The translations under genes were made by a program, and so were the position numbers. The notes below the pieces were generated by a model that saw only the letters and a list, made by a program, of their open reading frames with translations, had not been told where the DNA came from and did not search any database. Of a DNA stretch of 64,000 nucleotides, positions 17,376-47,374 are shown in pieces; position 1 is the first letter of the stretch, and each line of letters starts with the position of its first letter. The stretch is from Methanocellales archaeon (lineage in GTDB: Archaea > Halobacteriota > JAWCLZ01): contig JAWCMA010000001.1 in NCBI GenBank assembly GCA_038850285.1, forward strand, positions 27,880-91,879, written 5' to 3'.

Positions 17376-17426
17376 TGTAATATATCTATTCCTGTGTTAT
17401 TATGGAATATCTATTCCTGTGTTATT

Positions 17427-18098
17427 ATGGAAAAATCAGAAAAAAATTATAATCTATATCCCCTGTTATTTTCCCTTTGGATGATGGATCTCCATATTCA
17501 CTCCTCCCTCTCGGATGGCAAAGCAGGGATATATGAAATACTAGAGGAAGCGGAGAGGAAAAAGCTAAGCCTAATTGCAATAACAGATCACGGCCCTGGA
17601 CACGTTTGCGGAGCCACTAATAGAGAGCTGAGAAAGCTAGCTAGAGAACTCAAAGCAATTAGAAATTCCTATAGAGTAAAAGTGTTAATTGGTGTTGAAG
17701 CGGAGATTGACGAAGATGGATCAACAAATTTAGATGAAGATATAGATTTTGATGTCATACTGGCCTCGATACATAGAGCTGTGGGTGTAGAAGACTACTT
17801 CACGCGACTAAAACTCGCGCTTGCTAAATCTAGAATCGATGTACTTGCCCACCACGGCTTATATCTACCTCAAATAGATGCTAGTTTAAATCAAGAATTA
17901 GTTGAAATACTCAAGGAGAAAAAAGTGGCAGTTGAGATAAATTCATTTCACAGACTCCCTGACCTTGATTTCCTAGCCATGTGCGCTAGAGCTGGGTTGA
18001 AATATACCATTGGCAGCGATGCACATTCACTTGAGAGAATAGGCGATGTAGCTTGGGGGGAGAAAATTGGCAAGAAAATCTTTGAGGATTTGAAATGA
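17427..18098 (+). CDS. PHP-domain phosphoesterase
   Basis: DLHIHSSLSDG and ITDHG PHP motifs. The ORF track starts at a GTG at 17394; an ATG lies at 17427, and the true start may be MMDLHIHS at about 17481. Confidence 0.7.
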   Translation: MEKSEKNYNLYPLLFSLWMMDLHIHSSLSDGKAGIYEILEEAERKKLSLIAITDHGPGHVCGATNRELRKLARELKAIRNSYRVKVLIGVEAEIDEDGSTNLDEDIDFDVILASIHRAVGVEDYFTRLKLALAKSRIDVLAHHGLYLPQIDASLNQELVEILKEKKVAVEINSFHRLPDLDFLAMCARAGLKYTIGSDAHSLERIGDVAWGEKIGKKIFEDLK

Positions 18099-18517
18099 AG
18101 GTAAAATACCCTAGATTAACAGTCGACGTGGTAATTCTATATAGAAATAAATTTGTATTCATCAAGCGGGGAAATGAGCCATACAGGGGTAGATATGCCC
18201 TTCCAGGCGGCTTCGTTGAAGCTGGGGAGAGAGTGGAAGAAGCAGCTATTCGCGAGGCGAGAGAAGAAACTGGCCTTGATATTAGACTTATAAAACTTTT
18301 AGGGGTATACTCCGATCCAGATCGCGATCCACGCGGCCACGTGGTTAGCATTTGCTATCTAGCTGAAGGCACTGGAGAACTTAAACCAAGCACTGATGCT
18401 TGCGAGGTTTTGACTTGCTCTCTTGATGCTGCTATGAAGTTAAACCTCGCGTTTGACCACGATAAAATTTTGAGAGACGCCATAGCTGAGCTTCGTAGAA
18501 TAGGGAAATATTTTTAA
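18095..18517 (+). CDS. NUDIX hydrolase
   Basis: Nudix box GGFVEAGERVEEAAIREAREETGL. Confidence 0.85.
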   Translation: MKVKYPRLTVDVVILYRNKFVFIKRGNEPYRGRYALPGGFVEAGERVEEAAIREAREETGLDIRLIKLLGVYSDPDRDPRGHVVSICYLAEGTGELKPSTDACEVLTCSLDAAMKLNLAFDHDKILRDAIAELRRIGKYF

Positions 18518-18635
18518 ATATTGAGGGATGAAATAAATTGGGGTTGGTAATACTAATTTAAGGGGTGATGCTTGTCCCTATGTAGGACTATCTATTACCA
18601 GCCTTGAAATTCGACGGTGATGGGGGTGTTCGAAA

Positions 18636-18983
18636 ATGGGCATCCATATTGTCGTTGAATTTCTGGGCGTTGACCCGGAAAAACTCTCTAGAGTTGAAAA
18701 TGTAAAGCGAATTTTAGAAAGAGTATTGATTAATTCTAAGTTGAATGTGGTTGCAAATGTTTTTCATCAATTCTCGCCACATGGGGTTTCTGGAGTTTTT
18801 CTACTTCGCGAATCTCACCTCAGCATTCATACTTGGCCAGAGTATGAATATGCAGCCATAGATATCTTCACATGCGGTAGAGAGGAAGATGCACTTGAAG
18901 CACTATACTTACTTATAAAAGAGTTCCAACCCAAGGAAGTTAAAAAGGAAATAATCAGGAGGGAAGTTTCATGGAAAAAATAA
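18636..18983 (+). CDS. speH: S-adenosylmethionine decarboxylase proenzyme (pyruvoyl-dependent)
   Basis: 115 aa with the processing-site motif ESHLSIHTWPE. Confidence 0.85.
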   Translation: MGIHIVVEFLGVDPEKLSRVENVKRILERVLINSKLNVVANVFHQFSPHGVSGVFLLRESHLSIHTWPEYEYAAIDIFTCGREEDALEALYLLIKEFQPKEVKKEIIRREVSWKK

Positions 18984-20047
18984 GAGAATATATCTTAAAT
19001 GAATTAGCCACTTCTAATAAAAGCATCTGGGAACTCCTAGATAGCGCTTACTCGCCCTTAAAAGATTTCTTGAAGACTTTGAAAAATTTAATTGAAAATG
19101 AGGTGATTGCAAGTAATGGTAAAACTTTTTATTTAACTGAGAAAGGCAAACAAGAAGCTACATTAATTGCATTAAATCCATTTAAAAGTAATCTCTGCCA
19201 GTATTGCAATGGGAAGAGAATTGCCATTGAGGGGAAATTTAAGGAGATATTAAGTGAGTTTAAAGAAATAGTTAAAACCCGGCCCCTTGTGGATTTAAAT
19301 TTCTTCCAAGGCTATGCGATTGAGGAAGATGTAGTGAGAAGAGTAGCTTTAATGCATCACTATGGCGATTTACATCGCAAGGATCTCATTTTAATTGGCG
19401 ATGATGATCTATTAAGCATAGCTCTCTCTCTAACTCAACTTCCATCTAGAGTCGTTGTTTTAGATATAGATGAAAAACTAGGGGAATTCATAGCACGAGT
19501 AAGCAGGGAACATCGCTTTGATATTGAATTTAGAAAATACAATGTAGCTGATCCATTACCAAAGGATCTAGTGGGAAACTTCGATGTTTTCTCCTCAGAG
19601 CCACTTGAAACCCTAACAGGGCTTAAAGCATTTGTTGCAAGAGGCGTGAGTTGCTTAAGGGAAAATGGCGCGGGCTACTTCGGCTTAACCTTTCTCGAGG
19701 CATCTTTTAAAAAATGGCTAGCAATACAGAAAACCATAAGCAAGATGAACTGCGTGATGACAGATGTAATCCGGGGATTCACAGCTTATCCAATGAACTA
19801 TGAAAACTTGGATTATGAATCATTTGTAGAAAAACTTAAGGTTCCAATTGAAAGAAACCCTGGTATTAATTGGTATAAATCTGCATTAATAAGAGTTGAA
19901 GCACTAGGCAAGCCAAAGCTAGTCATACCACCGAATAAAAAATTGCGTGTGAAACTTGTTGATCCAATGGAAGACCTCACATATCCAAATAAAAAATGCG
20001 CCGGTCGGGATTCGAACCCGAGTTTGGGGCTTGGCAAGCCCCAGTGA
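18971..20047 (+). CDS. bpsA: Branched-chain polyamine synthase (N4-bis(aminopropyl)spermidine synthase, DUF43 family)
   Basis: 358 aa. The assignment rests on the DUF43/BpsA-like fold and its position immediately downstream of speH. The last ~51 nt of the CDS are antisense to tRNA-Gly. Confidence 0.65.
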   Translation: MEKIREYILNELATSNKSIWELLDSAYSPLKDFLKTLKNLIENEVIASNGKTFYLTEKGKQEATLIALNPFKSNLCQYCNGKRIAIEGKFKEILSEFKEIVKTRPLVDLNFFQGYAIEEDVVRRVALMHHYGDLHRKDLILIGDDDLLSIALSLTQLPSRVVVLDIDEKLGEFIARVSREHRFDIEFRKYNVADPLPKDLVGNFDVFSSEPLETLTGLKAFVARGVSCLRENGAGYFGLTFLEASFKKWLAIQKTISKMNCVMTDVIRGFTAYPMNYENLDYESFVEKLKVPIERNPGINWYKSALIRVEALGKPKLVIPPNKKLRVKLVDPMEDLTYPNKKCAGRDSNPSLGLGKPQ

Positions 20048-20068
20048 TAACCACTACACTACCGGCGC
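19997..20068 (-). tRNA. tRNA-Gly (GCC)
   Basis: The reverse complement GCGCCGGTAGTGTAGTGGTTATCACTGGGGCTTGCCAAGCCCCAAACTCGGGTTCGAATCCCGACCGGCGCA folds as a cloverleaf with anticodon loop TTGCCAA. CCA is not encoded. Confidence 0.9.
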
Positions 20069-20116
20069 ATGTATATTTTTAGCTGGTGAGGTATAAAAAT
20101 TTGATCTTCAATTGAA

Positions 20117-20189
20117 TGCCCTGACCCGGACTCGAACCGGGGACAGCCAGATCTTCAGTCTGGCGCTCTCCCAACTGAGCTATCAGGGC
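20117..20189 (-). tRNA. tRNA-Phe (GAA)
   Basis: The reverse complement GCCCTGATAGCTCAGTTGGGAGAGCGCCAGACTGAAGATCTGGCTGTCCCCGGTTCGAGTCCGGGTCAGGGCA has anticodon loop CTGAAGA. Confidence 0.9.
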
Positions 20190-20232
20190 ATTTTGAGTTT
20201 AGTTTGTAAATTTTAATTAATAAAGGTTTTGA

Positions 20233-20421
20233 CTAAGGCGTTGGCGCCTTTGGCCACATTCCAAAATAGGCATTTAATATCATGGCTGCTATGGCTGCAA
20301 CTATACAGGCGATGACCACTGCCCTTGGACTGATTCTTATTGCACTTTCCTCGGTTTCAAAGTAGCGCATTAAACCAGCGCTTGACATTAAACCGCTTAC
20401 TTTCTCCCCTTTCCTAGGCAT
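20233..20421 (-). CDS. secG: Preprotein translocase subunit Sec61-beta (archaeal SecG)
   Basis: 62 aa with SGLMSSAGLMRYFE followed by a C-terminal TM helix. Confidence 0.8.
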   Translation of the reverse strand: MPRKGEKVSGLMSSAGLMRYFETEESAIRISPRAVVIACIVAAIAAMILNAYFGMWPKAPTP

Positions 20422-20463
20422 GGCTATCTTTATATTAATTCAATACTTCATTTAAATTTTGTC

Positions 20464-21561
20464 ATGCGAGAGTTAATAATCTCTGGAACAATTTTATGCG
20501 GAGCTAATTTCACTCCACTTGAAGGGTATATCTGCGTGGATAGGAAGAATGGTATCATTAAGGAAATTGGTGAGGGAAAAGCCCCATCCAAGATCAAGGG
20601 AATAATTATACCAAGCTTTATTAATGCTCATACTCACTTAGGGGACTCCATTGCCAAGGATATTCCCTTTAATGATCTCGACGAGCTTGTGAAGCCACCA
20701 TTTGGAATTAAGCATCAAATATTGAAATGCACGCCTACGCGGAAGTTATGTGCAGCAATGAGAAGCTCACTTAAAGACATGCTTTACACTGGCACTTCTC
20801 ACTTCATCGACTTTCGAGAAGGCGGTATTAAAGGCGTGAAAGCACTGCAGAGAGCCATGCAGGACTCAATCCTTGAAGGCTTAATTCTAGGAAGACCCGA
20901 GTCTGAGGAAGAGGCTGAGCACCTCTTGAATCATTGTCATGGCTTTGGAATCAGTGGAGCCAATGACTTTGAATTAGAATATCTAGAAAAACTCAGATAT
21001 CTAGCGAAGCGCAGGGGTAAATACTTTGCAATACACGCTGGGGAAAAAGATAGAAGTGATATCGACACAGCACTTTCTCTAGAACCAGATATTTTAGTTC
21101 ATATGACCCACGCGTTGCCGCGGGATCTTAAAAAGGTGGCTGATAAAGGCATACCCATTGTACTCTGCCCTAGATCGAACTTCGCAACTAGAGTAGCTGG
21201 TTTTTCAAAGCCAAATGTGAGGAAAATGATTGATCTAGGCATATGCTTGGGACTTGGTACTGATAATGTTTTGATCAATTCACCTTGCATGTTCACTGAG
21301 ATGGAATTCCTTTCAAAGATTTTCCTAGATGGAGAAATTGAGGTATTGAGGATGGCAACTTTAAATGGAGCAATTATTCTAGGCATGGAAAATCAAGTTG
21401 GTACAATTGAAACAGGGAAAGCTGCTTGTCTCATAGTAATAAATAAGAACTCAAACAACATAAGATATACGAAAAATTTACCTCGAACAATTGTGCGGAG
21501 AGCAAGACCTGATGACATAATTGCAGTTGTCAATAAAGGTAAGATACTAAGGAGTGATTGA
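20464..21561 (+). CDS. Metal-dependent amidohydrolase family protein
   Basis: INAHTHLGDS metal-binding motif; 365 aa. Confidence 0.7.
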   Translation: MRELIISGTILCGANFTPLEGYICVDRKNGIIKEIGEGKAPSKIKGIIIPSFINAHTHLGDSIAKDIPFNDLDELVKPPFGIKHQILKCTPTRKLCAAMRSSLKDMLYTGTSHFIDFREGGIKGVKALQRAMQDSILEGLILGRPESEEEAEHLLNHCHGFGISGANDFELEYLEKLRYLAKRRGKYFAIHAGEKDRSDIDTALSLEPDILVHMTHALPRDLKKVADKGIPIVLCPRSNFATRVAGFSKPNVRKMIDLGICLGLGTDNVLINSPCMFTEMEFLSKIFLDGEIEVLRMATLNGAIILGMENQVGTIETGKAACLIVINKNSNNIRYTKNLPRTIVRRARPDDIIAVVNKGKILRSD

Positions 21562-22014
21562 ATGGGTGAAAAATTCAATAGCATTTTAATTGCAACAGAT
21601 GGCTCACAGCATACTAAAAGTGCAGTTAAACACGGCCTAGCGCTTGCAAAACTTAGCAATGCAAAGGTATATGCAGTATATGTGATTGACATTGGCATGT
21701 TTGCCTCTATACCAATGGATACAACCTTGGAGAATATGCATGAACTCCTTAAGAAAGAGGGGGAACTTGCAACGAGGAGTGTCGAGGAAGAAGCAAAAGC
21801 GCTGGGTATTGAAATCGAGAAAATCATCCTCGAGGGTAATCCAGCGCAGGAAATTGTTAAATTCGCAAATGCCAATAATATTGATCTCATCGTTATGGGC
21901 ACGCTAGGCAAAAGTGGACTGGAGAGATTTCTCTTGGGCAGTGTGGCAGAGAAAGTTATAAGAACAGCTTCTTGCCCAGTAATGGTGGTAAGAAGCAGAG
22001 CTGGAGGAAAGTAA
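21562..22014 (+). CDS. Universal stress protein (UspA family)
   Basis: ILIATDGSQHT...VMGTLGKSGLERFLLGSVAEKV. Confidence 0.85.
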   Translation: MGEKFNSILIATDGSQHTKSAVKHGLALAKLSNAKVYAVYVIDIGMFASIPMDTTLENMHELLKKEGELATRSVEEEAKALGIEIEKIILEGNPAQEIVKFANANNIDLIVMGTLGKSGLERFLLGSVAEKVIRTASCPVMVVRSRAGGK

Positions 22015-22043
22015 AAATATAAGGAACAATAAGGAGCATAAAA

Positions 22044-22895
22044 ATGCCGCAGATCGATATTGCTGTTAAGGAAATAATGACTAAAAATGTAATATACGCT
22101 GAAGTACCTGGCTCGCGCGATGAAGTTTTGAAGATAATGAAGAAAAAAGGAATCAGCGGCTTGCCGGTGGTGAAGGGCAAGAAGCTGGTTGGAATAGTAA
22201 CAAGACGAGACATCTTAAGGCATCCTGAGGAAGAGCAAATTGCACTTTTGATGACTAGAAATCCAATAACTGTAACCCCTGAATCCAGCATTAAAGAAGC
22301 TGCTAAGCTGTTCTTAAATCATAAGATTCGCAGGCTTCCAGTGGTGACCAATTCCAATTTAGTGGGCATTGTTACTGTGACAGATTTAATTGCAGCAATG
22401 GGGGATATGAATATCACTAAAACTATTGAAAGCTATGTGGAGAATTCAGTTGTCGTGGTATGGGAAGAGACCCCGCTGCCAGTGGTGGCAGAGATCATGC
22501 GCTTGGCTAAAGTGGATGCATTGCCGGTGATTAACACTGCAAATGAACTCGTGGGGATAATCAGTGACACAGATCTAATTAAAGTAAGCAAAATAGAGGA
22601 CTCAGTAGAGAAATCAGATATGAGTGCTGGGAGTGATGAGGATGCTTGGACTTGGGAGAGTTTAAGGGATACAATGAGTTTGTACTATAGTGTCTCTAAG
22701 ATAAAATTCCCTGAGGTACCTGTGAAGGAGATAATGGTGAAGAAAGTGATCACAGCTGCGATGAACTCAGAGGTTAGTGATTGCGCTAAAAAAATGAGGC
22801 GATATAAAATCGAGCAGCTTCCAGTTGTAACTGCTCATCAAAAAATCACAGGTATGCTGAGAGACTCAGAATTAATACGAGCACTCCTTGAATAG
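22044..22895 (+). CDS. CBS-domain protein (four CBS repeats)
   Basis: Repeated segments of the type IMTKNVI..V......GISGLPVV..KLVGIVT..D. Confidence 0.8.
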   Translation: MPQIDIAVKEIMTKNVIYAEVPGSRDEVLKIMKKKGISGLPVVKGKKLVGIVTRRDILRHPEEEQIALLMTRNPITVTPESSIKEAAKLFLNHKIRRLPVVTNSNLVGIVTVTDLIAAMGDMNITKTIESYVENSVVVVWEETPLPVVAEIMRLAKVDALPVINTANELVGIISDTDLIKVSKIEDSVEKSDMSAGSDEDAWTWESLRDTMSLYYSVSKIKFPEVPVKEIMVKKVITAAMNSEVSDCAKKMRRYKIEQLPVVTAHQKITGMLRDSELIRALLE

Positions 22896-22953
22896 AGAAA
22901 ACCTTGAAAAAATAAAAATTTACTTTATAAAATTAAAAACTTTGTTTGATCAT

Positions 22954-23250
22954 TCATTTTTTCTTCATCTTTACTGCTGAGATGAACTCATCGATCCCAA
23001 TTGCTCCTAGAGTAGTGGTCTTCAAAGTCCCTCGCGAGCCAAGTTCAACTGCGACTCTAGCTATGGTTTTATTATCAGGTGCCTCGAGAATGTTCAAAAA
23101 GTCATATTCCCCTAGAAGTGCATATTGCGCGAGTATCTTCACACCCATAGCCTCAACTTCTTTATTGACTTCTTTTATCCTCTCAGGATTCTCTTTAATC
23201 GTCTCTAGACCCTTATCTGTTAGCGTAGTCAGCATAACGTAAACAGGCAT
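22954..23250 (-). CDS. GYD-domain protein
   Basis: 98 aa with MPVYVMLTTLTDKG...LGEYDF. Confidence 0.7.
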   Translation of the reverse strand: MPVYVMLTTLTDKGLETIKENPERIKEVNKEVEAMGVKILAQYALLGEYDFLNILEAPDNKTIARVAVELGSRGTLKTTTLGAIGIDEFISAVKMKKK

Positions 23251-23303
23251 AACATAACCTCCATTTTTTAAATATGAGCTAGAGCTATATAGATATTTTT
23301 AAT

Positions 23304-24122
23304 TTAAATGTAATTTTTTAAAATGTAATTTTTTTCGCGATCTAGATATTTTGCATAGAGCTTGGAACGTCTATCCTTGAAAACTTGAATCTCTCCCCTC
23401 ACTTTATCAATCATACTCAGGTCTACATCGCAGATCAACTCAGCTTCATCCTCTCCAGCTTCAGCTAAGAAGCTACCATCTGGAGCTGCAACGAGTGAGT
23501 GACCGAAATAACTCTGCTTACCAGATGCTCCAACTCTATTGCAGGCTGCAATGAAAAGCTGATTCTCAATTGCTCTAGACGCGAGCAATGTGCGCCAGAT
23601 ATTCAACCTAGGCTTAGGGAACTGAGCAGGCACAAAGATGATCTTCGAACCTTTAAGCGCAAGTATCCTCGCCACTTCTGGGAAGCGAATTTCATAGCAA
23701 ATCATAACACCAATTCTACAGAGTCTACTGCTAAAAGTTTTAATAGCACTGCCAGCGGAAAGATATTCATTCTCCCCCATAGGGCTGAAAAGATGGCACT
23801 TGCGATATTTACCAAGAATTCTACCCCCCTCAAGTACATAAGCACTGTTATAAATTTTTTGCTTTATCTCAGGAATGGATCCAGCAATAATGCAAGCTTG
23901 CTTGGTTCTTTCCATGATTAAATTAATTGCACGCTGGCAATCTTGAGGTGAAAGTTTTTTAATTATTCCATAGTTAAACCCAGCTAGCCACATCTCAGGA
24001 AGTAGAATAAAATCAGCTCCCTGCTTGATGCAGGATTCAATGCCGCGTATAGCTCTATTTAAATTCTCCACAATGGAATTGGATACCTCAATTTGAACAA
24101 GCCCAATTTTTACACGTCGCAT
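23304..24122 (-). CDS. Carbon-nitrogen hydrolase (nitrilase superfamily)
   Basis: E-K-C triad context: LPEMW, and a Cys in VMICYEIRFPE. Confidence 0.8.
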   Translation of the reverse strand: MRRVKIGLVQIEVSNSIVENLNRAIRGIESCIKQGADFILLPEMWLAGFNYGIIKKLSPQDCQRAINLIMERTKQACIIAGSIPEIKQKIYNSAYVLEGGRILGKYRKCHLFSPMGENEYLSAGSAIKTFSSRLCRIGVMICYEIRFPEVARILALKGSKIIFVPAQFPKPRLNIWRTLLASRAIENQLFIAACNRVGASGKQSYFGHSLVAAPDGSFLAEAGEDEAELICDVDLSMIDKVRGEIQVFKDRRSKLYAKYLDREKNYILKNYI

Positions 24123-24246
24123 AGCATTATGAGTTCTACTCCTTATTTATTTACCATGCCATTCTATTCTTACCATATCCCAAGTCTTTATCTATATCTA
24201 AATTATCCAAAAAGCTATTAACCAATACTTTCATAAAAAACTAATA

Positions 24247-24603
24247 ATGGAAGAAGAAAAAATCCAGAAACTCGCAAGGATGCTTGAGAAAGGCGGGAAG
24301 ATGCTAGCAGCTCACTGCGCTTGCAATGCACCGCTATTCAAATATCACAATGAAATAATCTGCGCTGCTTGTGGAAGGCAGTATGAAAAAAAAGGTGATG
24401 AATATATATTAAAAACCCCTGCAGTGGAAGCAACGGCACCGGCAGTGAAGGGAGACATGAGTTCAGTGGAGCTTGCAATAATTGAGAAACTCAATCAAAT
24501 TGCAAGTGATTTGAAGAATGAACGCGATCCAAGGAGAATTCAAGAGCAATTTCAGTGCATTGAACTCGGTGTTAAAATACTGCAGAGCTTGAGAAAAACC
24601 TAA
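24247..24603 (+). CDS. Zn-ribbon protein, UPF0148-like
   Basis: 118 aa with CACNAPLF...CAACG. Its stop abuts the tRNA-Ser 5' end. Confidence 0.45.
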   Translation: MEEEKIQKLARMLEKGGKMLAAHCACNAPLFKYHNEIICAACGRQYEKKGDEYILKTPAVEATAPAVKGDMSSVELAIIEKLNQIASDLKNERDPRRIQEQFQCIELGVKILQSLRKT

Positions 24604-24688
24604 GTCGAGGTATCCAAGCCTGGTATGGAGCAGGTTTGCTAAACCTGTGTCCCTATGGGACTCGGGGGTTCAAATCCCCCCCTCGGCG
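24604..24688 (+). tRNA. tRNA-Ser (GCU)
   Basis: GTCGAGGTATCCAAGCCTGGTATGGAGCAGGTTTGCTAAACCTGTGTCCCTATGGGACTCGGGGGTTCAAATCCCCCCTCGGCG with anticodon loop TTGCTAA and a long Ser-type variable arm. Confidence 0.9.
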
Positions 24689-24700
24689 TAATATAAAATA

Positions 24701-38067: not shown

Positions 38068-38092
38068 ATCTTTTAACTACATAAAAACGTAT

Positions 38093-38377: not shown

Positions 38378-38384
38378 GAGAAAT

Positions 38385-39467
38385 CTAGAGAAATTTAAAA
38401 GGCTTTTTAATATACCGCCCTCTTATTAAAATCTCCAAGCCGCATTTTGGGCATTTTTTATCCTCGCCAAGTATATAATCCACAACTTGATATCCAACTC
38501 TAACTATCAAAAGCTCGCCGCAGTTAGGGCAGTAGGTATTTTCATATCTATGTCCGTGAACATTGCCAATGTAGGGATACATTATGCCCTCTTTCTTCGC
38601 AGCTTCATACGCCCTCTCTAAGATTTCAACTTTAGTTGGTGGCTTGCGATAAAGAAATGCAGGATAGTAGCGAGTGAAGTGAATAGGAATATCAGGACCT
38701 GCATACTTTAAATGCTTATGAATTATCTCTTCAATGCAGGCTTCATCGTCATTGACTTCGGTGACAATTAGAAACACAAGTTCTAAATGTAAACCTAGTT
38801 TTTTCGCCTCCATCACATTTCTCCAGATAGCTTCTGCTTTCACTCCTCCGCAGAACTTTTCATAAACTTGAGCATCGCCTTTAATATCGATCTTTAACCC
38901 ATCTAAGCCAGCTTCTTTTAAATTGCGAAGTGCCTCTAAACTCATATAGCCATTGGATACAAAGCAATTGTAGAGTCCTTTTTCTCTAGAGAGCTTGAAA
39001 CAGTCAAGTGCAAATTCATATAGCAAAGTTGGCTCTTGAAAACTTATGCAAAGTCCATTATCGTTTGATCGAAGCGCCATATCAACAATTTCACTTGGCG
39101 AGAAAAACCTAGCTCTTCTTGGATCAGGCTCGGCCTTAGATAGCGAGTGATTCTGACACCATGGACACGAAAAGTTACAGCTCCAAGTGGAAAATGTAAG
39201 CGCTGTGGAGCCAGGGTAGTAGTGGAAAAATGGCTTGATTTCAATGGGCCTGCTCTCCACAGCTGAGATATCTCCGTACACAAGGGTATATAACTCGCCA
39301 TCTAGGTTAACGCGAGTTTTACAATAGCCTTTTCTACCATCGCTGATTTCGCAGCCCCGCATGCAGAGTTCGCATTTAACCTTGCCTTCAGGGAGTTGCT
39401 TGTAGAGTTTAGCTGGCCTCACAACTGGGAAGCTCGAAAGGAGTACCATTATTAATAAAATGGTCAT
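38385..39467 (-). CDS. AmmeMemoRadiSam-system-type radical SAM enzyme (PflA-like activase fold)
   Basis: AKLYKQLPEGKVKCELCMRGCEI..G..GYC..R; radical SAM motif CNFSCPWCQN; C-terminal CPNCG..CPKCG. The true start may be an internal GTG. Confidence 0.65.
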   Translation of the reverse strand: MTILLIMVLLSSFPVVRPAKLYKQLPEGKVKCELCMRGCEISDGRKGYCKTRVNLDGELYTLVYGDISAVESRPIEIKPFFHYYPGSTALTFSTWSCNFSCPWCQNHSLSKAEPDPRRARFFSPSEIVDMALRSNDNGLCISFQEPTLLYEFALDCFKLSREKGLYNCFVSNGYMSLEALRNLKEAGLDGLKIDIKGDAQVYEKFCGGVKAEAIWRNVMEAKKLGLHLELVFLIVTEVNDDEACIEEIIHKHLKYAGPDIPIHFTRYYPAFLYRKPPTKVEILERAYEAAKKEGIMYPYIGNVHGHRYENTYCPNCGELLIVRVGYQVVDYILGEDKKCPKCGLEILIRGRYIKKPFKFL

Positions 39468-39546
39468 TTAAAGCTTATTCTTTTCCTAATTTAAAATCAA
39501 TTTGAGTCAAAATTCTTATTTTTAAGTAAATTTAATTGATAGGTAT

Positions 39547-40380
39547 ATGAAGCAGAAGCTGGAATTCTACAAGCTGCAGGCGAATGGCAATGATTTCATT
39601 TTAATCGATGAATTCAAAGAAATAGTAATTCCTGATGGAGAAAAAGCTAAGTTTGCAGTGAAATACTGCAATAGGAGATTTGGAATAGGTGGCGATGGGG
39701 TTTTATTTCTAGGCAGCTCTGAAATAGCTGATTTAAAAATGCGTCTTTTTCAACAGGATGAATCTGAAGCTGAGATGTGCGGCAATGGCGTGCGGTGCTT
39801 GGTAAAACATGCCATCGATAAAGGCTATGTAAAACTCGGGAGGTGCACTGTTGAGACTTTGGCAGGTGTAATTGCAGTTGAAACGCGAAGAGAACTTGGG
39901 AAAATCTTGGCAAAGGTAAATATAGGCAAGCCTAAATTCGACTGCAAATCCATCCCTGCCCTAGGAGAGGGTGAGTTTTTGGAGAGGGAAGTAGAGGGAT
40001 ATAAGATTTCAGCAGTGAATACAGGTGTTCCTCACGCAGTGATCTTCGTCTCCGATCTCGAGTTTCCAATAAATACAATTGCCCCGAAGATTAGGTATTC
40101 CAAAGTCTTTCCAAAGGGAGCGAATGTTAATTTTGTCAAGCTTGAAGAAAAAAGCCTGAGGATTAGAACATATGAGCGTGGAGTTGAGGATGAAACCCTC
40201 AGTTGTGGAACAGGTGCTGTTGCTAGTGCAGCGATAGCTAATAGACTTGGATTGATTGGAAATGAAGTTGATGTATATACAAAGGGTGGTTTGCTTAGAA
40301 TTTTTCTAAAAGATGGAAATGCATATCTCGAGGGAACTTGCGAAACTGTCTATCGCGGAGAGATTATGGAAAATGTATAA
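39547..40380 (+). CDS. dapF: Diaminopimelate epimerase
   Basis: Catalytic cysteines in MCGNGVRC and SCGTGAVASA. Confidence 0.85.
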   Translation: MKQKLEFYKLQANGNDFILIDEFKEIVIPDGEKAKFAVKYCNRRFGIGGDGVLFLGSSEIADLKMRLFQQDESEAEMCGNGVRCLVKHAIDKGYVKLGRCTVETLAGVIAVETRRELGKILAKVNIGKPKFDCKSIPALGEGEFLEREVEGYKISAVNTGVPHAVIFVSDLEFPINTIAPKIRYSKVFPKGANVNFVKLEEKSLRIRTYERGVEDETLSCGTGAVASAAIANRLGLIGNEVDVYTKGGLLRIFLKDGNAYLEGTCETVYRGEIMENV

Positions 40381-40459
40381 TTTTTTTAGTGTTTTTTCGA
40401 AAGGACAAGATTGACACTTTATTTGACAACTATATCTATATATCAATTGATTTAAATAG

Positions 40460-40765
40460 TTGCAGAAAATAAATTGTAATGGTGAATACCAAATGAAGCC
40501 CGGTGAGATACCGGTAAAGAGTATAGAGTTGAAGAGGGGGAAATTCGAGGTATATAGAGTTGGAAACATGCGATTCGAGCGGTTATCAGACTGCGGAGAG
40601 CCTGGGAAGGACCTGTGGATTGGATTCATCGAGAGTGGCGATAAAGATATACCTGTTTATGCTCGAAAAGGGGAGGGCTTTACATTAGAGGAAATTAGGA
40701 AATGCTGGGAATCAACGGGGAAATTTTTAGATAGCGTTGAGAAAAAAGTTAAGAAGACCAAATAA
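40460..40765 (+). CDS. Hypothetical protein (101 aa)
   Basis: ORF only. Confidence 0.35.
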   Translation: MQKINCNGEYQMKPGEIPVKSIELKRGKFEVYRVGNMRFERLSDCGEPGKDLWIGFIESGDKDIPVYARKGEGFTLEEIRKCWESTGKFLDSVEKKVKKTK

Positions 40766-40863
40766 TTTTAATAAATTTATATTTCTCCCCATTGCTGGAA
40801 AAAGTCTACATTGCTGGAAAAGTCTATTATCCTATAGCTCAATTCTTTTTTCCAAGTGAGAAT

Positions 40864-41841
40864 ATGAAGATGAAAACCCTAATTTTAACTTCTCAAGATG
40901 TGAAGAAAGTAATAAAAATGGAGCAAGTGATTGAAGCAATGGAAGAATGCTTTAGAGAACACGGCTTGGGAAAAACGATTATGCCTGCGAAGGTCTACAT
41001 CAATCTACCGCAATACGCTGGGGATTTCAGAGCCATGCCTAGCTATATTAAAGATGTTGCTGGAGTGAAATGGGTGAATGTTCATTTGAATAATCGAGAG
41101 AAAAATCTCCCAACGGTTATGGCAGTTTATATCTATAGCGATCCAACCACTGGTTTTCCCCTCGCTATAATGGATGGAACCTTGATAACAAGCTATAGAA
41201 CTGGTGCTGGAGCAGCAGTTGCCTCGAAGTACCTCGCGAGGGGGGATTCAAAAACACTGGGCTTAGTGGGCTGCGGTGTTCAAGCTTATACCCAGCTACT
41301 TGCCATCAGCAAGCTCTTTCAACTTGAGGAAGTGAAGATATATGATATCTCAAGTAAAGCAATGGATGAATTCGCAGAGAGAAATAAAGATTTCAACATC
41401 TCTAAAACTTCCCTCAAAAACGCAGTTGCCTGTGATATTGTTTCCACCACTACACCCTCTAGGTCTCCAATTGTGAAACGCGCTTGGATTAAAAAGGGCA
41501 CGCATATAAATGCAATTGGCGCAGACGCACCTGGCAAAGAAGAGCTTGACCCTAAGATTTTGCTCGACGCAAAAGTAGTGGTAGACGACTACGAACAAGC
41601 GTGGCACAGCGGGGAAATCAATGTACCTGCTAGTAAAAAAATCTTGACCCGCAAGGATATCTATGCTTCCCTAGGAGAGATCGTAGCGGGAATTAAAAAA
41701 GGCCGCATTGGTAAAGAGATAACGGTTTTTGACTCAACTGGACTAGCAATTCAAGATGCAGTTACCGCGAGAACTATTTATACTGCTGCGAAGCAGATGA
41801 ATTTGGGAATGGAAGTAGATCTAATTGGGGAGGGCACATGA
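40864..41841 (+). CDS. Ornithine cyclodeaminase/mu-crystallin family protein (possible archaeal alanine dehydrogenase)
   Basis: OCD-family Rossmann motif LGLVGCGVQA. The start was chosen at MKMKTLILT; the ORF-track TTG at 40792 lies inside a tandem duplication. Confidence 0.75.
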   Translation: MKMKTLILTSQDVKKVIKMEQVIEAMEECFREHGLGKTIMPAKVYINLPQYAGDFRAMPSYIKDVAGVKWVNVHLNNREKNLPTVMAVYIYSDPTTGFPLAIMDGTLITSYRTGAGAAVASKYLARGDSKTLGLVGCGVQAYTQLLAISKLFQLEEVKIYDISSKAMDEFAERNKDFNISKTSLKNAVACDIVSTTTPSRSPIVKRAWIKKGTHINAIGADAPGKEELDPKILLDAKVVVDDYEQAWHSGEINVPASKKILTRKDIYASLGEIVAGIKKGRIGKEITVFDSTGLAIQDAVTARTIYTAAKQMNLGMEVDLIGEGT

Positions 41842-42509
41842 TTTATAGAAAATGGCGCCACATTACTAAGTTAGATCCAGATCGAAAGATCACTCAAGGT
41901 GATATCGATAGAATAGCGACTAGTGGCACAGATGCAATAATGATCGGCGGTACTCAGAAAATAACTCCAGCGAAGGTGAAGCGCTTGATATCCATGCTCA
42001 AGAGGCATAAAATTCCTAAAATACTTGAGCCATCGAAGCCAGAAGCAGTATGCTATGAAGATGTAGATGCAGTCTTTGTGCCAAGTGTTATAAATACTCA
42101 AGATATAACTTGGCTGATAGGCAAGCATCGAGAATGGGTGCAGCACTACCAAGTGAGGTGGGAAAAAATCGTACCAGAGGCATATATAGTGCTAAACCCT
42201 GACTCAGCAGTTGCAAATCTCACTAAATCGAGAACAAATCTAAGCAAAGAAGAAGTCGCAGCCTACGCTAGACTCGCGGAGAATTACTTTAAATTTCCAA
42301 TAGTATACATAGAATATAGCGGTAAATATGGAGATCCAGAAGTCGTGAAAGCTGCGAAGGAGAGCTTGAAAAAAGCCGCTTTATTCTACGGCGGGGGGAT
42401 AGCCTCTAGAGAGCAAGCCCTTGAGATGAAGAAATACGCGGATACCATTATAGTTGGAAATGCAGTTTATGAGGCTGGGTTTGAAAGATTCCTTGAGACA
42501 ATAGTTTAA
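41838..42509 (+). CDS. Geranylgeranylglyceryl phosphate synthase (PcrB family)
   Basis: 223 aa with AIMIGGTQ and a C-terminal YGGGI; ATGA overlap with the upstream gene. Confidence 0.75.
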   Translation: MIYRKWRHITKLDPDRKITQGDIDRIATSGTDAIMIGGTQKITPAKVKRLISMLKRHKIPKILEPSKPEAVCYEDVDAVFVPSVINTQDITWLIGKHREWVQHYQVRWEKIVPEAYIVLNPDSAVANLTKSRTNLSKEEVAAYARLAENYFKFPIVYIEYSGKYGDPEVVKAAKESLKKAALFYGGGIASREQALEMKKYADTIIVGNAVYEAGFERFLETIV

Positions 42510-42583
42510 GCTGCTAATTATAAGCTAATTATTAAGCTAAATTAAGCTAATTATTAAGCTAATTTATTAAATATTAAATACCC
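42507..42583. repeat. About 5 imperfect tandem copies of AAGCTAATTATT
   Basis: Read directly: taagctgctaattat aagctaattatt aagctaaatt aagctaattatt aagctaatttatt. Confidence 0.8.
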
Positions 42584-42605
42584 AAAAGCTTTATATTAAT
42601 TTAAG

Positions 42606-43019
42606 ATGAATCCCATTTCCCTTATACCTGCTTTATTCATATTTGCAGTAATTGCAATCTTCATCCTCTTCATAGCTTTAGCTATATTCAGTGCAGCGAA
42701 CTTCGGTGGGTTAATAATGATAGGCCCCATTCCAATTGCATTTGGATCTACAACTGAGGTCACAACTATAGCAATGGTGATTGGACTCCTACTTATCATA
42801 GTTTACTTCCTATTCCTCTTCCTCCTCCGACGTGGAATGGAAAGGGAAATGGAGAAGCCAGAGCAGCTTGAGCGAAGAACAGAGGTCAAGGGAGGGGGCG
42901 TGGTAATGATAGGCCCCATTCCCGTAATATTTGGCTCAGACATGAGGTATGCTTCCTTGGCAATAGCACTAACTATAATTTTAATGCTCCTCGCGCTGAT
43001 ATTGATGTTTGCAATATAG
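42606..43019 (+). CDS. DUF131-family membrane protein with an internal duplication
   Basis: GGLIMIGPIPIAFGS and GGGVVMIGPIPVIFGS repeats flanked by TM segments. Confidence 0.65.
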   Translation: MNPISLIPALFIFAVIAIFILFIALAIFSAANFGGLIMIGPIPIAFGSTTEVTTIAMVIGLLLIIVYFLFLFLLRRGMEREMEKPEQLERRTEVKGGGVVMIGPIPVIFGSDMRYASLAIALTIILMLLALILMFAI

Positions 43020-43092
43020 CTCATTTAATTGCAAGTTTCTTCATTTAATTTTTGCAAGTTTCTTTATACTTGAACTGGTAATTCTATTAACA

Positions 43093-43914
43093 ATGGAGCT
43101 AAAAAGACTTGCAATTGTCACAAAACCTAGCTCGAGAGAAGCAGTTGAAATAGCTAGGAAAATAATAGCTGCATTTGAAGGAAAAGTGGATTTCACTTTA
43201 GACCCAAAAACTGCTCTAGCTCTTGGTATTGCTAAAGGCAAGCCTATTAGAAGGATGGATGTAGATTTAATAGTGGTTATCGGCGGGGATGGCACAGTTC
43301 TGCGCACTCTCCAAAGGCTAATTAAACCAGTTCCAGTGATTGGAATTAACATAGGCGAGGTGGGATTTTTAGCGGATTTGAATCCAGACAATGCTATTGC
43401 AGGGATCAACTCCCTGCTTCAAGGCTTTGAAGTAGAGAAGCGAATGCGCCTAGCTGTTAGCATAAATGAAAGATCACTCCCCCCAGCGGTGAATGAAGCA
43501 GTAATTGTAACAGCTAGACCCGCAAAGATAAGCCATTTTAAACTCTCGATTGATAATCGAAAACTCGATGAATTTCGAGCTGATGGTGTGGTTATAGCAA
43601 CCCCAACTGGCTCAACAGCATATGCAATGAGCGCAGGTGGACCAATAATTGATCCCAGAGTAGATGCCTTTATCATAGTACCACTTGCACCATTTAAACT
43701 CTCAGCTAGACCTTGGGTGGTGCCAGCTGAGAGCGAGATCTCAGTTGAAATACTCCGCCCTGATAAGGAATCAGTTTTGGTTGTTGATGGCCAATTCAAG
43801 CAAATTGTTAGAATGAATGATAAAATCAAATTCACTAAATCAAAATCTCCAGCGTTTTTCGTTAAAACCTCCAAGGATTTTTACTCCAAGGTTAGAGATA
43901 AACTTGTGATCTAG
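43093..43914 (+). CDS. nadK: NAD+ kinase
   Basis: GGDGT motif (VIGGDGTVLR) and NE/D short motif. The start was chosen at MELKRLAIV. Confidence 0.85.
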   Translation: MELKRLAIVTKPSSREAVEIARKIIAAFEGKVDFTLDPKTALALGIAKGKPIRRMDVDLIVVIGGDGTVLRTLQRLIKPVPVIGINIGEVGFLADLNPDNAIAGINSLLQGFEVEKRMRLAVSINERSLPPAVNEAVIVTARPAKISHFKLSIDNRKLDEFRADGVVIATPTGSTAYAMSAGGPIIDPRVDAFIIVPLAPFKLSARPWVVPAESEISVEILRPDKESVLVVDGQFKQIVRMNDKIKFTKSKSPAFFVKTSKDFYSKVRDKLVI

Positions 43915-43962
43915 AGAAATTAATTGTGATCTAAATGGAGAAATTAAAGTAATGTGATCTAA

Positions 43963-44388
43963 ATGGAGAAATTAAAGGCATATTTCGCTGGAGCCATGAA
44001 AGGAGGGAGGAAATATCTTGAGGAATATAAAGCAATTGTAAAACAGCTCCGGGATATGAACATCGATGTGCTCACTCAACATGTGATTGATAATTCACTT
44101 GATCTTGGCTTGACCAAGCAGCAGATCTTCCAACGAGACTTAAAATCCCTTCGAGAGGCGGATTTCGTGGTTGCTGAGGTCTCAATGCCAAGTTTGGGCG
44201 TTGGCTATGAAGTCTGCGAGGCTCTTCATTTAGGGAAGCCAACGCTATGCCTATGCCGTGAAGAGGTCGATCTATCTACATTGATAAATGGAAATCCCTC
44301 TCCCCTCATTAGAATACAGAGATATCGCGATGTTCAAGAATGTGCTTCTATAATAAAGGAATTCATAAGAGAGTTCATCCAACGCTAG
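43963..44388 (+). CDS. Nucleoside 2-deoxyribosyltransferase-like / DNPH1-like protein
   Basis: YFAGAM...DFVVAEVSMPSLGVGYEVCEALHLGKPTL. Confidence 0.55.
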   Translation: MEKLKAYFAGAMKGGRKYLEEYKAIVKQLRDMNIDVLTQHVIDNSLDLGLTKQQIFQRDLKSLREADFVVAEVSMPSLGVGYEVCEALHLGKPTLCLCREEVDLSTLINGNPSPLIRIQRYRDVQECASIIKEFIREFIQR

Positions 44389-44428
44389 ATGGAAAAAGAT
44401 TTATCGCTCTGCACCATCTTAGAAAAAT

Positions 44429-45073
44429 ATGGCTGGCTATCTTGAGAAAATAGAGGAAGCTGCGAAGAAATTCATGGAAAACTCTAAACCAGCTCATGAT
44501 TTTGACCACGTGAAGCGAGTGCTGCGCCTTGTAGAGCGAATAGGTAAAGCTGAAAATGGTGATCTTGAGATTCTACGTGCAGCTGCGTTTCTCCACGACA
44601 TTGGAAGAATAGAGGAGGAAAAAACAGGGGAATGCCACGCTGAAAAAGGAGCACTTCTTGCTAGGAAAATTTTAATGGACTGCGGCTTTCCAGAGAGCAA
44701 GATAGAAGCTGTGCTACACTGTATAGAGAGCCATAGATTCAGGGGCAATTTAAAGCCACATAGCTTGGAGGCAAAAATTCTCTATGATGCTGATAAACTC
44801 GATGCAATTGGGGCAATAGGAATAGCCAGAGCATATTCATTTGGAGGGGAAAGAGGCCAGAAATTATATACCAATAGCACCAAGGTGAATAAATTTGAAT
44901 TGAAAAAACAAATTGATCTAGAGCATACCCCTGTGGTGGAATTCGCTATAAAGCTGGGTAAAATAAAAGAGCACTTGTACACTAAAACAGCGCGGGAAAT
45001 CGCTAGAGGGAGACATAGGTTCATGGTTAAATTTTATGAGCGGTTGCAAAAAGAGGTCGAGGGCGAGCTTTAG
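44429..45073 (+). CDS. HD-domain phosphohydrolase
   Basis: H...HD motif: FDHVKRV...AAFLHDIGR. Confidence 0.8.
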   Translation: MAGYLEKIEEAAKKFMENSKPAHDFDHVKRVLRLVERIGKAENGDLEILRAAAFLHDIGRIEEEKTGECHAEKGALLARKILMDCGFPESKIEAVLHCIESHRFRGNLKPHSLEAKILYDADKLDAIGAIGIARAYSFGGERGQKLYTNSTKVNKFELKKQIDLEHTPVVEFAIKLGKIKEHLYTKTAREIARGRHRFMVKFYERLQKEVEGEL

Positions 45074-45112
45074 CTCGTGGGAAATTTTATATCTAAATAG
45101 TTCTAATTCTGC

Positions 45113-45499
45113 TTGGGTGCAATTGTTTTGACTAGCGAGATATCGCTGGTGAAGGGTGAGGGTAGAACAAAAATTTGCTTGTTAGCTAGAAAAATAGGCA
45201 GAGATTTAATTATAACCATAACAGGTGGGAGAGAGCACGCGGGTGCAATTGGGATTGGGTTATTTATAAATGACAAGGCAACTTCCTCGGTTATAACCCT
45301 TCCAAATCACAGGGAAGATGCAATAGCGAAGCAAGCAGCTGAGGAAATAGCTAAGGAGCTGAGGACAAATACAGTGGTTATAGCAGGTATTCACTTGGAT
45401 AATATTACTAGAGAGGAAATAGATGAAGTGGTAAAGAATTCAAAGACATTAGTCGCTGAACTTATCGCTGAATTTAAGAGAAGGGAGGGGGGAGTTTGA
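45113..45499 (+). CDS. Small protein co-transcribed with ubiX/ubiD (possible LpdD-like prFMN partner)
   Basis: 128 aa with a 4-nt overlap with the ubiX start. Assigned by context only. Confidence 0.3.
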   Translation: MGAIVLTSEISLVKGEGRTKICLLARKIGRDLIITITGGREHAGAIGIGLFINDKATSSVITLPNHREDAIAKQAAEEIAKELRTNTVVIAGIHLDNITREEIDEVVKNSKTLVAELIAEFKRREGGV

Positions 45500-46053
45500 G
45501 AATCGCAGTTGCAATCACAGGTGCAAGTGGAGTGCTATATGGCATTCGATTACTTGAGGTACTTAGAAACCATCGAGAGGTTGAAAGCCATTTTATCGTC
45601 TCCAAAAATGCTAAGCAGATAATTAAGATAGAGAGCAATAAAACCATTGAGGAGATAAAAGCACTGGCGAATTATTCATATGAAGAGGATGAATTACTAG
45701 CACCCATAGCAAGTGGTTCCTTTGAGTTGGATGCCATGGTTATAATACCCTGCAGCATGAAAACCCTAGCTGCGATTGCAAATGGCTATGCAGATAATCT
45801 GATAACTAGAGCAGCTGACGTTTGCCTTAAGGAAGAGCGTAGGTTAATACTCGTGACCAGAGAAACTCCACTTAGCACGATGCACCTTGAGAACATGCTT
45901 AAAGCTAGAAAAGCCGGTGCGATTATCATGCCAGCTTCACCAGCATTTTACATTAAATATGAAAAAGTAGAGGATTTAATTGATTTCATCGTAGGCAGAG
46001 TACTCGATCTTCTCCACCTTGAGCATAGCTTATATAAAAGGTGGGGCGAATGA
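45496..46053 (+). CDS. ubiX: Flavin prenyltransferase UbiX
   Basis: MRIAVAITGASGVLYGIRLL...PCSMKTLAAIANG. Confidence 0.85.
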   Translation: MRIAVAITGASGVLYGIRLLEVLRNHREVESHFIVSKNAKQIIKIESNKTIEEIKALANYSYEEDELLAPIASGSFELDAMVIIPCSMKTLAAIANGYADNLITRAADVCLKEERRLILVTRETPLSTMHLENMLKARKAGAIIMPASPAFYIKYEKVEDLIDFIVGRVLDLLHLEHSLYKRWGE

Positions 46054-47309
46054 GCTTGAGGGATTTTTTAGAGAAATTAAGGCTAGAGGGACTGCTCCTC
46101 AACATCGAGGAAAGGGTTTCACCTGAATTTGAAGCGCCTAAAATCGCTAGAGAGCACTCTAAACCGATTTTCTTCAAAGATGTGGCTGGGAAAAAAGCAG
46201 TGATGAATGTAATTTCAAGTCGGGAAATACTAGCACTTGCTCTAGGAGTAAGGAAAGAGGAAATAGTGAGATATCTCGCCGGGGTAAAGCCTGAGGGTGA
46301 AATAAAAATTGTGGAAGAGATGCCTTTTCTGGAGAGGCAATTCAAAGCTGATTTATCTAAGCTCCCTATAATGCGGCATTATCGAGAGGATGCAGGTAAA
46401 TATATAACCGCTGGAGTTGTGATTTCGAGACTTGGCGAGGAATACAATGCCTCGGTGCATCGCATGCTTGTGCTTGATAAGAGAACCCTTGCGGTTAGAT
46501 TAGTGCCACCTAGGCATTGCTATCTAATGCATAAAAAAGCCGCGGAGCAACGTAGGGAGCTACCGGTTGGAGTTGCAATTGGAGTGGACCCTCTTTTCTT
46601 GCTTGCAGCATGCACTAGAGTGCCTGAGTGCAGGGAATTTCAATATACTAGTGCACTATCTGGCAAACCACTTGAGCTTTATGAGCTTGAGAATGGAGTT
46701 CAAGTGCCAGATGCTGAAATAGTATTAGAAGGCTATGTAGACCCTGAGGCTAGAGCTAGAGAGGGGCCATTTGTGGATATAACTGGTACTTTAGATATAG
46801 TCAGAGAGGAACCAGTGATAAAGCTTAATAGAATATACATGCGTAGAGATGCAATCTATCAAGGTATACTCCCAGGTGGAAGTGAGCATAAACTATTGAT
46901 GGGCGTGCCATATGAACCTAAAATTTATAAAACAGTTGGCGAGGTTGCTCGAGTGAGAAATGTATTACTCACTGAGGGGGGGTGCTGTTATTTCCACGCG
47001 GTGGTGCAAATAGAAAAGCAAACTGAGGGCGATGGCAAAAATGCAATTCTAGCTACCTTCACTGCTCATCCGAGTTTGAAGCACGTTGTAGTGGTTGATG
47101 ATGACATCGATATTTATAATCAAGTGGAAGTGGAATATGCAATTGCCACGCGCGTGCGGGGAGATAGAGATATATTGATAATACCCCGCGCTAGGGGTTC
47201 ATCTTTAGATCCAGCTATTGCAGAGGATGGAACTACTACCAAAGTAGGGATAGATGCCACGAAGCCTTTGATTGGAAGAGAGAAGTTCAAGCGAGTTGAA
47301 ATGGAATAG
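46041..47309 (+). CDS. UbiD-family prFMN-dependent decarboxylase (possibly trans-anhydromevalonate-5-phosphate decarboxylase of the archaeal mevalonate pathway)
   Basis: 422 aa with a UbiD-like fold and coupling to ubiX. Confidence 0.7.
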   Translation: MGRMSLRDFLEKLRLEGLLLNIEERVSPEFEAPKIAREHSKPIFFKDVAGKKAVMNVISSREILALALGVRKEEIVRYLAGVKPEGEIKIVEEMPFLERQFKADLSKLPIMRHYREDAGKYITAGVVISRLGEEYNASVHRMLVLDKRTLAVRLVPPRHCYLMHKKAAEQRRELPVGVAIGVDPLFLLAACTRVPECREFQYTSALSGKPLELYELENGVQVPDAEIVLEGYVDPEARAREGPFVDITGTLDIVREEPVIKLNRIYMRRDAIYQGILPGGSEHKLLMGVPYEPKIYKTVGEVARVRNVLLTEGGCCYFHAVVQIEKQTEGDGKNAILATFTAHPSLKHVVVVDDDIDIYNQVEVEYAIATRVRGDRDILIIPRARGSSLDPAIAEDGTTTKVGIDATKPLIGREKFKRVEME

Positions 47310-47374
47310 CTTTAGGTTTTCAATAGCTAGTTTTTAATAGCTCTAGGTTTTTCAATAGCTAGTTTTTAATAGCT
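47310..47374. repeat. Tandem duplication (2 × ~32 bp) CTAGGTTTTTCAATAGCTAGTTTTTAATAGCT spanning the trm1 3' end
   Basis: Copy 2 encodes the Trm1 C-terminus (..LKTSY*). Copy 1 is a downstream ghost copy that includes the stop codon. Confidence 0.85.

Follow-up and report, generated by a model that had tools for sequence, protein, structure and literature searches.

Why should short head-to-tail duplications lie so often at the ends of genes in a compact archaeal genome? The question is raised by a stretch of 64,000 nucleotides (nt) of contig JAWCMA010000001.1 (positions 27,880 to 91,879, assembly GCA_038850285.1), part of a metagenome-assembled genome (MAG) of a Methanocellales archaeon; we call this whole stretch the window, and coordinates given without a contig name are positions within it. 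A reading of the letters alone (here, the sequence-only reading) had singled out six such duplications, numbered below as sites 1 to 6, had called their density unusual, and had seen in them either a lineage-specific slippage or repair bias or the relics of insertion and excision. We find that the duplications are real, well above chance and specific to the lineage, and that in kind they are ordinary mutation plus selection in a compact genome. With a probability of roughly 0.8, we consider them recent, local, short tandem duplications, the commonest type of short insertion, which selection and not targeting has kept at gene ends. A literature search found no paper on such a pattern in Methanocellales or in archaea generally.

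Tandem duplications and their placement at gene ends

Repeats were called in the window with Tandem Repeats Finder (TRF), a locus being any repeat with a period of at least 10 and a score of at least 50, and were also read directly in the sequence. The window holds 15 such loci, against a mean of 0.26 (maximum 2) in 50 dinucleotide-preserving shuffles. All six sites of the sequence-only reading are present, some with revised coordinates or copy counts, and nine more lie at 15282, 23306, 34172, 38096, 48394, 51512, 53300, 55881, and 59223. Copies adjoin head to tail with no foreign sequence in between, and their units are unique within the window, with no dispersed copies. An equal-length comparison of gaps with their flanks was dropped because gap length seldom equals the repeat period, and TRF together with the reading of alignments was used instead. 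Gene identities (PcrB, DUF131, NAD kinase, UbiD, Trm1, PHP, and an OCD-family enzyme) come from Pfam, and Rfam covariance models at gathering score found four tRNAs and nothing else over the window. Clustering of the loci between 40.7 and 47.4 kb is weak (5 observed, 1.6 expected, P = 0.02).

The placement of the loci is far from random. Twelve of the 15 lie in spacers or at most 30 nt from a gene end, against 0.21 by random placement (P = 1.8e-6), in a window that is about 90% coding and for which gene starts were refined before the test; in related contigs, 13 of 14 repeat loci likewise lie in spacers or at boundaries. Two of the three interior loci are clean and have periods of 12 and 24, both multiples of three, and the third is a low-complexity TTTC tract with a 68% match and a period of 16. 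Repeats within terminal codons have periods of 12, 15, 21, and 21, and the purely intergenic or junction repeats have periods of 13, 13, 18/19, 22, 23, 25, 28, and 32. We propose that short duplications would arise anywhere, and that those inside genes would be removed, as they shift the frame or add residues. A duplication in a spacer, or across a stop or start codon, would spare both genes, the upstream one ending in the first copy and the downstream one starting in the last. This harmless layout can be read directly at site 4, at locus 51512 (TAA stop, GGAGAT, TTG start) and at site 5, where both convergent stops are kept. Because selection in a genome that is about 90% coding explains the gene-end placement, no targeting mechanism is needed, and placement and periods together bear the mark of purifying selection acting on short duplications that fall at random and whose neutrality we infer. 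The earlier wording that the repeats lie exactly at gene boundaries fits sites 4, 5, and 6 and loci 51512 and 15282, and is too strong for the others, which lie inside very short spacers.

Junction copies in the window and in related contigs

The window was compared with five related lineages. They are contig L018, 91% identical by BLAST (94% over aligned columns) and spanning window positions 41297-46032; L001, a GTDB Methanocellales MAG, 80% identical over 43051-54057; L019-22, L025-28, and L030-32, about 79-85% identical and jointly covering 7541-24691, 30765-42988, and 43052-53953; and L023 and L029, 81-83% identical. The fifth, contigs L024 and L034, is the same strain as the window. A scan of Joint Genome Institute (JGI) metagenomes with nadK found no relative closer than 57% identical. 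Relatives have fewer copies, or a single one, at sites 2, 4, 5, and 6 and at loci 51512 and 23306, and in its alignment with L001 the window has three insertions of its own that exceed 40 nt: the arrays of sites 4 and 5, and one of 74 nt at 51173. Because the extra copies are absent from relatives, the duplications are derived and mostly very recent insertions, so that the comparison with related genomes that the sequence-only reading had proposed came out in favor of lineage-specific copies.

Site 4 (43905-43977, plus strand) shows the process most fully. TRF and the sequence give three copies (43905-43924, 43925-43952, and 43953-43977; 20 + 28 + 25 nt) where two had been counted, each containing the junction of nadK stop, GTGATC ribosome-binding motif and ATG; we take GTGATC to be a ribosome-binding site, as it is complementary to the 3' end of 16S rRNA. 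The nadK stop lies in the first copy (TAG, 43912-43914) and the start of the DNPH1-like gene in the third (ATG, 43963). The middle copy yields a putative mini-open reading frame (mini-ORF), MEKLK* (43935-43952, plus strand, ATGGAGAAATTAAAGTAA), read from the sequence and equipped with its own GTGATC. Every relative has a single junction here, and in L018, L001, and L019 the nadK stop is 0-2 nt from the next ATG, the abutting junction reading TCTAAATGG, or TGTGGTCTAAATGGAG in L018. The window is 43-48 nt longer at this site than these three relatives, and the distance from the nadK stop to the next ATG has widened from 0-2 nt to 48 nt. The duplication and the mini-ORF are therefore as the sequence-only reading had described them, apart from the copy count, and its expectation that such duplications alter start-codon context and leaders holds at this site, where stop and ATG have been separated.

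At site 5 (47305-47384; TRF and sequence), 2.5 copies of a 32-nt unit with five AATAGCT cores extend over the UbiD stop (47307-47309, plus strand) and, on the minus strand, over the final ~10 codons of trm1 with their stop (47352-47354). It had been described as a repeat of the trm1 end; the plus-strand gene ending at 47309 is in fact UbiD, and trm1 lies on the minus strand at 47352-48437. In L001 and L019, the convergent UbiD and Trm1 stops are separated by just a few nucleotides and two AATAGCT-like cores are present; the window is 43 nt longer than L001. Trm1 nonetheless differs in length by just 1 amino acid (aa), and the length of its C terminus is preserved.

Two further sites flank the DUF131 gene. 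Site 6 (42508-42580; TRF and sequence) begins inside the PcrB stop codon (42507-42509) and consists of about five copies of the 12-nt unit (T)AAGCTAATTAT(T), followed by 2.3 copies of TATTAAA; the roughly fivefold array had been seen before, and the trailing 7-nt repeat is added to it. It stands immediately 5' of AAAGCTTTATATT, which resembles the B recognition element (BRE) and TATA box of the DUF131 gene. L018 has one copy, the window being 53 nt longer, and L025-L027 have two copies of TTTGCGAATTATTAA, giving copy numbers across lineages of 1, 2, and about 5. Site 3 (43021-43064; TRF and sequence) is, as had been stated, an imperfect duplication of about 2 × 22 nt upstream of nadK (87%, TCATTTAAT..TTGCAAGTTTCT); it runs from just past the DUF131 stop (43017-43019) to just short of the TTTATAC box of nadK, a gene whose start is at 43093. 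Two TTGCAAGTTTCT copies are likewise seen in L018, separated by a different spacer, and L001 has one. The gene order alanine dehydrogenase-PcrB-DUF131-nadK is shared by the window and L018 and is broken in the ~80% lineages, in which a thermosome gene (Cpn60/TCP1) or a different minus-strand gene stands before nadK and an NrdD gene comes after DUF131; upstream synteny of 42606-43019 places the breakpoint in the site 3 spacer.

The remaining two sites lie upstream of genes, at some distance from their starts. Site 1 (17382-17431; TRF and sequence) is a perfect 2 × 25 nt duplication (unit ATATCTATTCCTGTGTTATTATGGA, 100% identical). It occupies the spacer from which an archaeosortase-like gene (16557-17375, minus strand) and the PHP gene are divergently read, and its exact self-match of 51 nt gives 1 nt of junction microhomology. 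It had been thought to contain the PHP start, which it precedes by 50-100 nt: the true start is ATG 17481, and the 205-aa product is 100% identical to an NCBI protein from a Methanocellales archaeon MAG (P0246). L030 and L032 have a single copy, and L029 has a 17 × 2.3 duplication of its own at the same spot. Site 2 (40790-40826, 19 + 18 nt, CATTGCTGGAAAA(A)GTCTA; TRF and sequence) lies in the spacer upstream of the OCD-family gene annotated as alanine dehydrogenase. Its former assignment to the start of that gene does not stand either, since the repeat ends 37 nt before the ATG at 40864 (P0121, 325 aa, 100% identical to an NCBI protein). L025 has a single copy, and the window is 22 nt longer.

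Relatives also carry duplications of their own, with different units, at the junctions of 17382, 23306, 15282, and 42513 (L029 1047-1085 and 7022-7046, L030 7796-7843, and L025 ~11650-11700). This recurrence at the same junctions could come from tolerant spacers, from hot spots, or from old arrays kept homogeneous. Among the near-identical assemblies L019, L020, and L021 which differ only in an A-run, by 1 nt, we found no copy-number polymorphism. Elsewhere, the 79-85% lineage has junctions that are duplicated or expanded by AT-rich sequence where the window is not, namely those of PHP/NUDIX (15 × 4.4), Usp/CBS (15 × 2.7), and HIT with the next gene (L030 10618-10682 and 14629-14669, and L019 17495-17545). 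At the HIT junction of the window, the genes still overlap by 20 nt (50625-50644).

Mechanism, rate and rival origins

Each duplication would be a local event, made by realignment of the nascent strand (slippage or template switching), by fill-in and joining of a staggered break, or by expansion of an existing array. The route that we infer is a mixture, in which de novo duplication through template misalignment or staggered-break fill-in and joining is followed by slippage that enlarges the arrays. Hairpin-associated slippage was considered and rejected, as no consistent inverted repeats were found at the duplication ends, and an origin in dispersed repeats or miniature inverted-repeat transposable elements was rejected on the uniqueness of the units in the window.

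Several observations weigh against an account by ordinary mutation and selection. The perfect two-copy events, with 1-2 nt of junction microhomology, fit poorly with slippage between pre-existing direct repeats, and such a repeat is evident at site 5 only (the 7-nt AATAGCT, present twice in L001), with possibly a 4-nt TAAA at site 4. Several junctions carry independent duplications in different lineages, hinting at hot spots or function. A density about five times that of comparators, albeit in a small sample of ~224 kb, suggests that something beyond a generic background rate may act. The window has 2.3 loci per 10 kb and its clade relatives 1.6 (86.7 kb, non-redundant), against ~0.45 per 10 kb in the comparators, which comprise ~224 kb of loci from other archaea, 50 kb of E. 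coli K-12, and 21 kb of Methanolobus zinderi. Set against these outsiders the window stands apart (P = 7e-5), but it does not differ from its own clade (P = 0.2). That the whole clade has a few-fold excess is plausible, though the comparator set behind this is small and unmatched for spacer content. The unusual density claimed by the sequence-only reading is thus borne out in part: it exceeds that of other archaea and E. coli and is not different from that of the clade itself, and the gene-end placement that had been offered with it as a sign of repair bias is explained by selection.

The excess invites the reading that the clade has a raised rate of microhomology-poor duplications of 12-32 nt through some peculiarity of repair or replication, with selection only shaping the survivors. 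By analogy, candidates would be staggered-break fill-in with Ku/LigD end joining, flaps left by strand-displacement synthesis, or poor flap processing. The densities speak for it (P = 7e-5 for the window and 2e-3 for the relatives), as do the junction microhomology of just 1-2 nt and the at least three duplication events in 4.7 kb of the window since the split from L018 (~6% divergence), with none in L018. A possible lead is the system for non-homologous end joining (NHEJ) of Methanocella paludicola, also of the Methanocellales, which has been characterized and whose polymerase performs strand displacement (PMC4797286); patch-mediated breaks have been proposed as the source of such duplications in rice (Vaughn and Bennetzen 2014, as cited in PMC11385596). 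We nevertheless hold a raised rate to be unlikely, if worth keeping in view: the comparator set is small and matched in neither GC nor spacer content, duplications private to L018 or L023 are few, and weaker selection or longer AT-rich spacers would explain the excess equally well. Its widest form appears more doubtful still, namely that an uncultured, low-GC, Methanocellales-related clade has a several-fold raised rate of microhomology-independent 12-32 nt duplication, possibly caused by end joining, strand displacement, or flap processing, and that this is the main force separating abutting or overlapping genes and making spacers, copies of ribosome-binding sites (RBS) and start codons, mini-ORFs, altered C termini, promoter-proximal copies, and hot spots.

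Other readings concern function, mobile elements and assembly. Some repeats may serve as direct repeats of cis-elements, whether transcription-factor sites (sites 1, 3, and 6), extra oligo-T terminators (site 5), or a means of tuning promoter spacing. In favor of this, different lineages have repeats at shared junctions (L029 at site 1 and 23306, L025-27 at site 6, L018 at site 3, and L030 at 15282), both strong repeats of L029 coincide with window loci (P about 0.025), site 6 adjoins its BRE/TATA-like motif, and site 5 adds four T4-T5 tracts after UbiD. Yet conservation is seen neither in the unit sequences nor in their copy number; L018, the closest relative, is single-copy at site 6 and lacks the extra copies of site 4. 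A regulon motif would be expected to recur, whereas each unit is confined to its own site in the window, and overlap with the best-sampled lineage (L019, L025, and L030) is that of chance (1-2 observed, ~1.9 expected). Together these points make a regulatory role improbable. Target-site duplications are typically 2-15 bp long. That the repeats are such footprints, left by insertion and excision of a mobile element, draws some appeal from their position between genes, where mobile elements commonly land, and from the exactly two perfect copies at site 1; the units of 18-32 nt exceed the usual size, however, sites 4, 5, and 6 have 2.5-5 copies, the copies are neither separated nor flanked by an element remnant or terminal inverted repeats, and no related contig carries an element at these sites. 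Because the units are unique in the window and the arrays reach 3-5 copies, transposon footprints are argued against, and the suggestion of insertion and excision relics finds no residual foreign sequence among the 12-32 nt units either; we regard it as very improbable. Just as remote is an assembly or sequencing artefact, a concern that arises naturally with a MAG. In data set SRR27730043, Logan contig L024 crosses site 2 with 99.94% identity and no gaps, and L034 crosses the triple copy of site 4 with 100% identity. Because this separate assembly, from another assembler, has both sites base for base, they are not a one-off error of the MAG assembly, the outcome by which the sequence-only reading would have been overturned. 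The check covers sites 2 and 4 of the six, and since Logan was possibly built from the MAG's own reads, read-level errors may persist; exact-protein look-ups for Trm1, alanine dehydrogenase (P0121), and DUF131 gave no match. Analogous duplications do occur in unrelated assemblies of relatives, and the placement respects reading frames, unlike an artefact. Recent local duplication filtered by selection thus remains the reading that we prefer.

Further repeats and the remodeling of gene junctions

Among the other loci found with TRF, 51512-51539 (plus strand) is a junction duplication of GGAGATAACTTGA × 2.2 with 2 nt of junction microhomology. Its unit takes in the TAA with which a small zinc-ribbon ORF ends, a GGAGAT motif for ribosome binding, and the TTG (51534) at which a dienelactone-hydrolase (DLH) gene starts, and it is single copy in L001 and L019. 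At 15282-15321 (minus strand), a 21-nt unit × 1.9 takes in the stop of a CDP-alcohol phosphatidyltransferase gene (15304) and the N-terminal region of an MptD/DHNA-like gene, and L030 has a 23 × 2.0 repeat at the orthologous junction. The MptD/DHNA-like gene (14940-15326, minus strand) aligns in a single frame with its L030 orthologue; the position of the L030 ATG (MKDRDRALFEAG) reads ATT ATT in the window (IIRDRDRALFEAG), no canonical in-frame start lies upstream, and the first canonical start would cost ~35 conserved residues, so that the gene may use a noncanonical start or may be decaying. A perfect 15-nt × 1.9 repeat at 23306-23334 (minus strand) forms the extreme 3' end of a CN_hydrolase gene and encodes KNYILKNYI*; it is absent in L030, and L029 has a different 13 × 1.9 repeat just 3' of the orthologous stop. 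Compared with L030, the CN_hydrolase gene (23304-23340, minus strand) is 11 aa longer, its ancestral stop having been lost through a 2-nt length difference, and reading continues into the duplicated spacer to end at KNYILKNYI*.

In-frame repeats were called at 38096-38120 (plus strand, a perfect 12 nt × 2.1 directly 3' of ATG 38093, encoding (EKYK)2), at 55881-55929 (plus strand, a perfect 12 nt × 4.1, encoding (KSRD)4), and at 53300-53345 (minus strand, 24 nt × 1.9, 82%), the last of which is an older or weaker example. The repeat at 55881 sits in a protein starting at ATG 55780 and is followed by an imperfect GATAGAGGATAC repeat. A perfect 13-nt × 1.9 spacer repeat lies between minus-strand genes at 59223-59247. 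The 74-nt insertion relative to L001 (51173-51246), in the spacer after 50625-51170, holds an imperfect GGTTTAAAAG(A/T)G repeat and has a small zinc-ribbon-like ORF (51295-51519) downstream of it. Between the stop of a 914-aa gene (4939-7683, minus strand) and the start of 4228-4743, also on the minus strand, the spacer contains a hexanucleotide microsatellite, the perfect (AAAAAT) × 9.7 at 4877-4934; by analogy with contingency loci, it could tune promoter spacing.

Yeast rad27/FEN1 mutants show a duplication signature of tens of base pairs. The window copies resemble the products of these mutants and those of patch-mediated repair at double-strand breaks (Vaughn and Bennetzen 2014) in size range and low junction homology, a likeness of outcome only. 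A closer parallel is offered by insertions at large, which according to a review (PMC11385596, citing Messer and Arndt 2007) are typically copies of adjacent sequence. Like short tandem-duplication insertions, the window copies are local, head to tail, 12-32 nt long, with little junction homology, and absent in sister lineages, and here too they form the largest class of long insertions in pairwise alignments. The adjacent-copy rule is documented mainly in eukaryotes, whereas here the genome is a compact archaeal one, in which survivors pile up at gene ends and pull genes apart. Prokaryotic minisatellites, or variable-number tandem repeats (VNTR), likewise have multicopy arrays of near-identical units (as at sites 5 and 6 and at 55881) whose copy number differs between relatives; unlike them, most loci of the window have just two copies.

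Tight stop-start spacing has been reported as necessary for the coupling of termination and reinitiation in archaea (PMC6728339, PMC10666635). The ancestral junction of nadK with the DNPH1-like gene (TAAATG, 0-2 nt) and the junction of the small ORF with the DLH gene (TAA-C-TTG in a single unit of the window) match this arrangement, unlike site 4 of the window, where stop and start stand 48 nt apart with a mini-ORF between them. The tight spacing has thus been lost at two codirectional junctions, and translational coupling of nadK with the downstream gene may possibly have gone with it, to judge from the sequence. Further effects would be the duplication of RBS and start codons, the creation of a leader mini-ORF, the four added T4-T5 tracts downstream of UbiD, and the extension of the CN_hydrolase C terminus.

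As it stands, the phenomenon is the expected outcome of known processes of mutation and selection. For annotation, it means that ORF callers are misled, the longest ORFs of PHP, alanine dehydrogenase, and nadK having their starts too far 5', within the repeats or upstream of them, and that gene-end duplications make mini-ORFs and change protein C termini. For evolution, the window offers clean snapshots of abutting or near-abutting junctions turning into spacers in one step with both genes unharmed, which bears on how translational coupling and operon spacing change. Should the clade-wide excess hold true genome-wide, it would be a mutational signature to link with the repair gene content of the Methanocellales.

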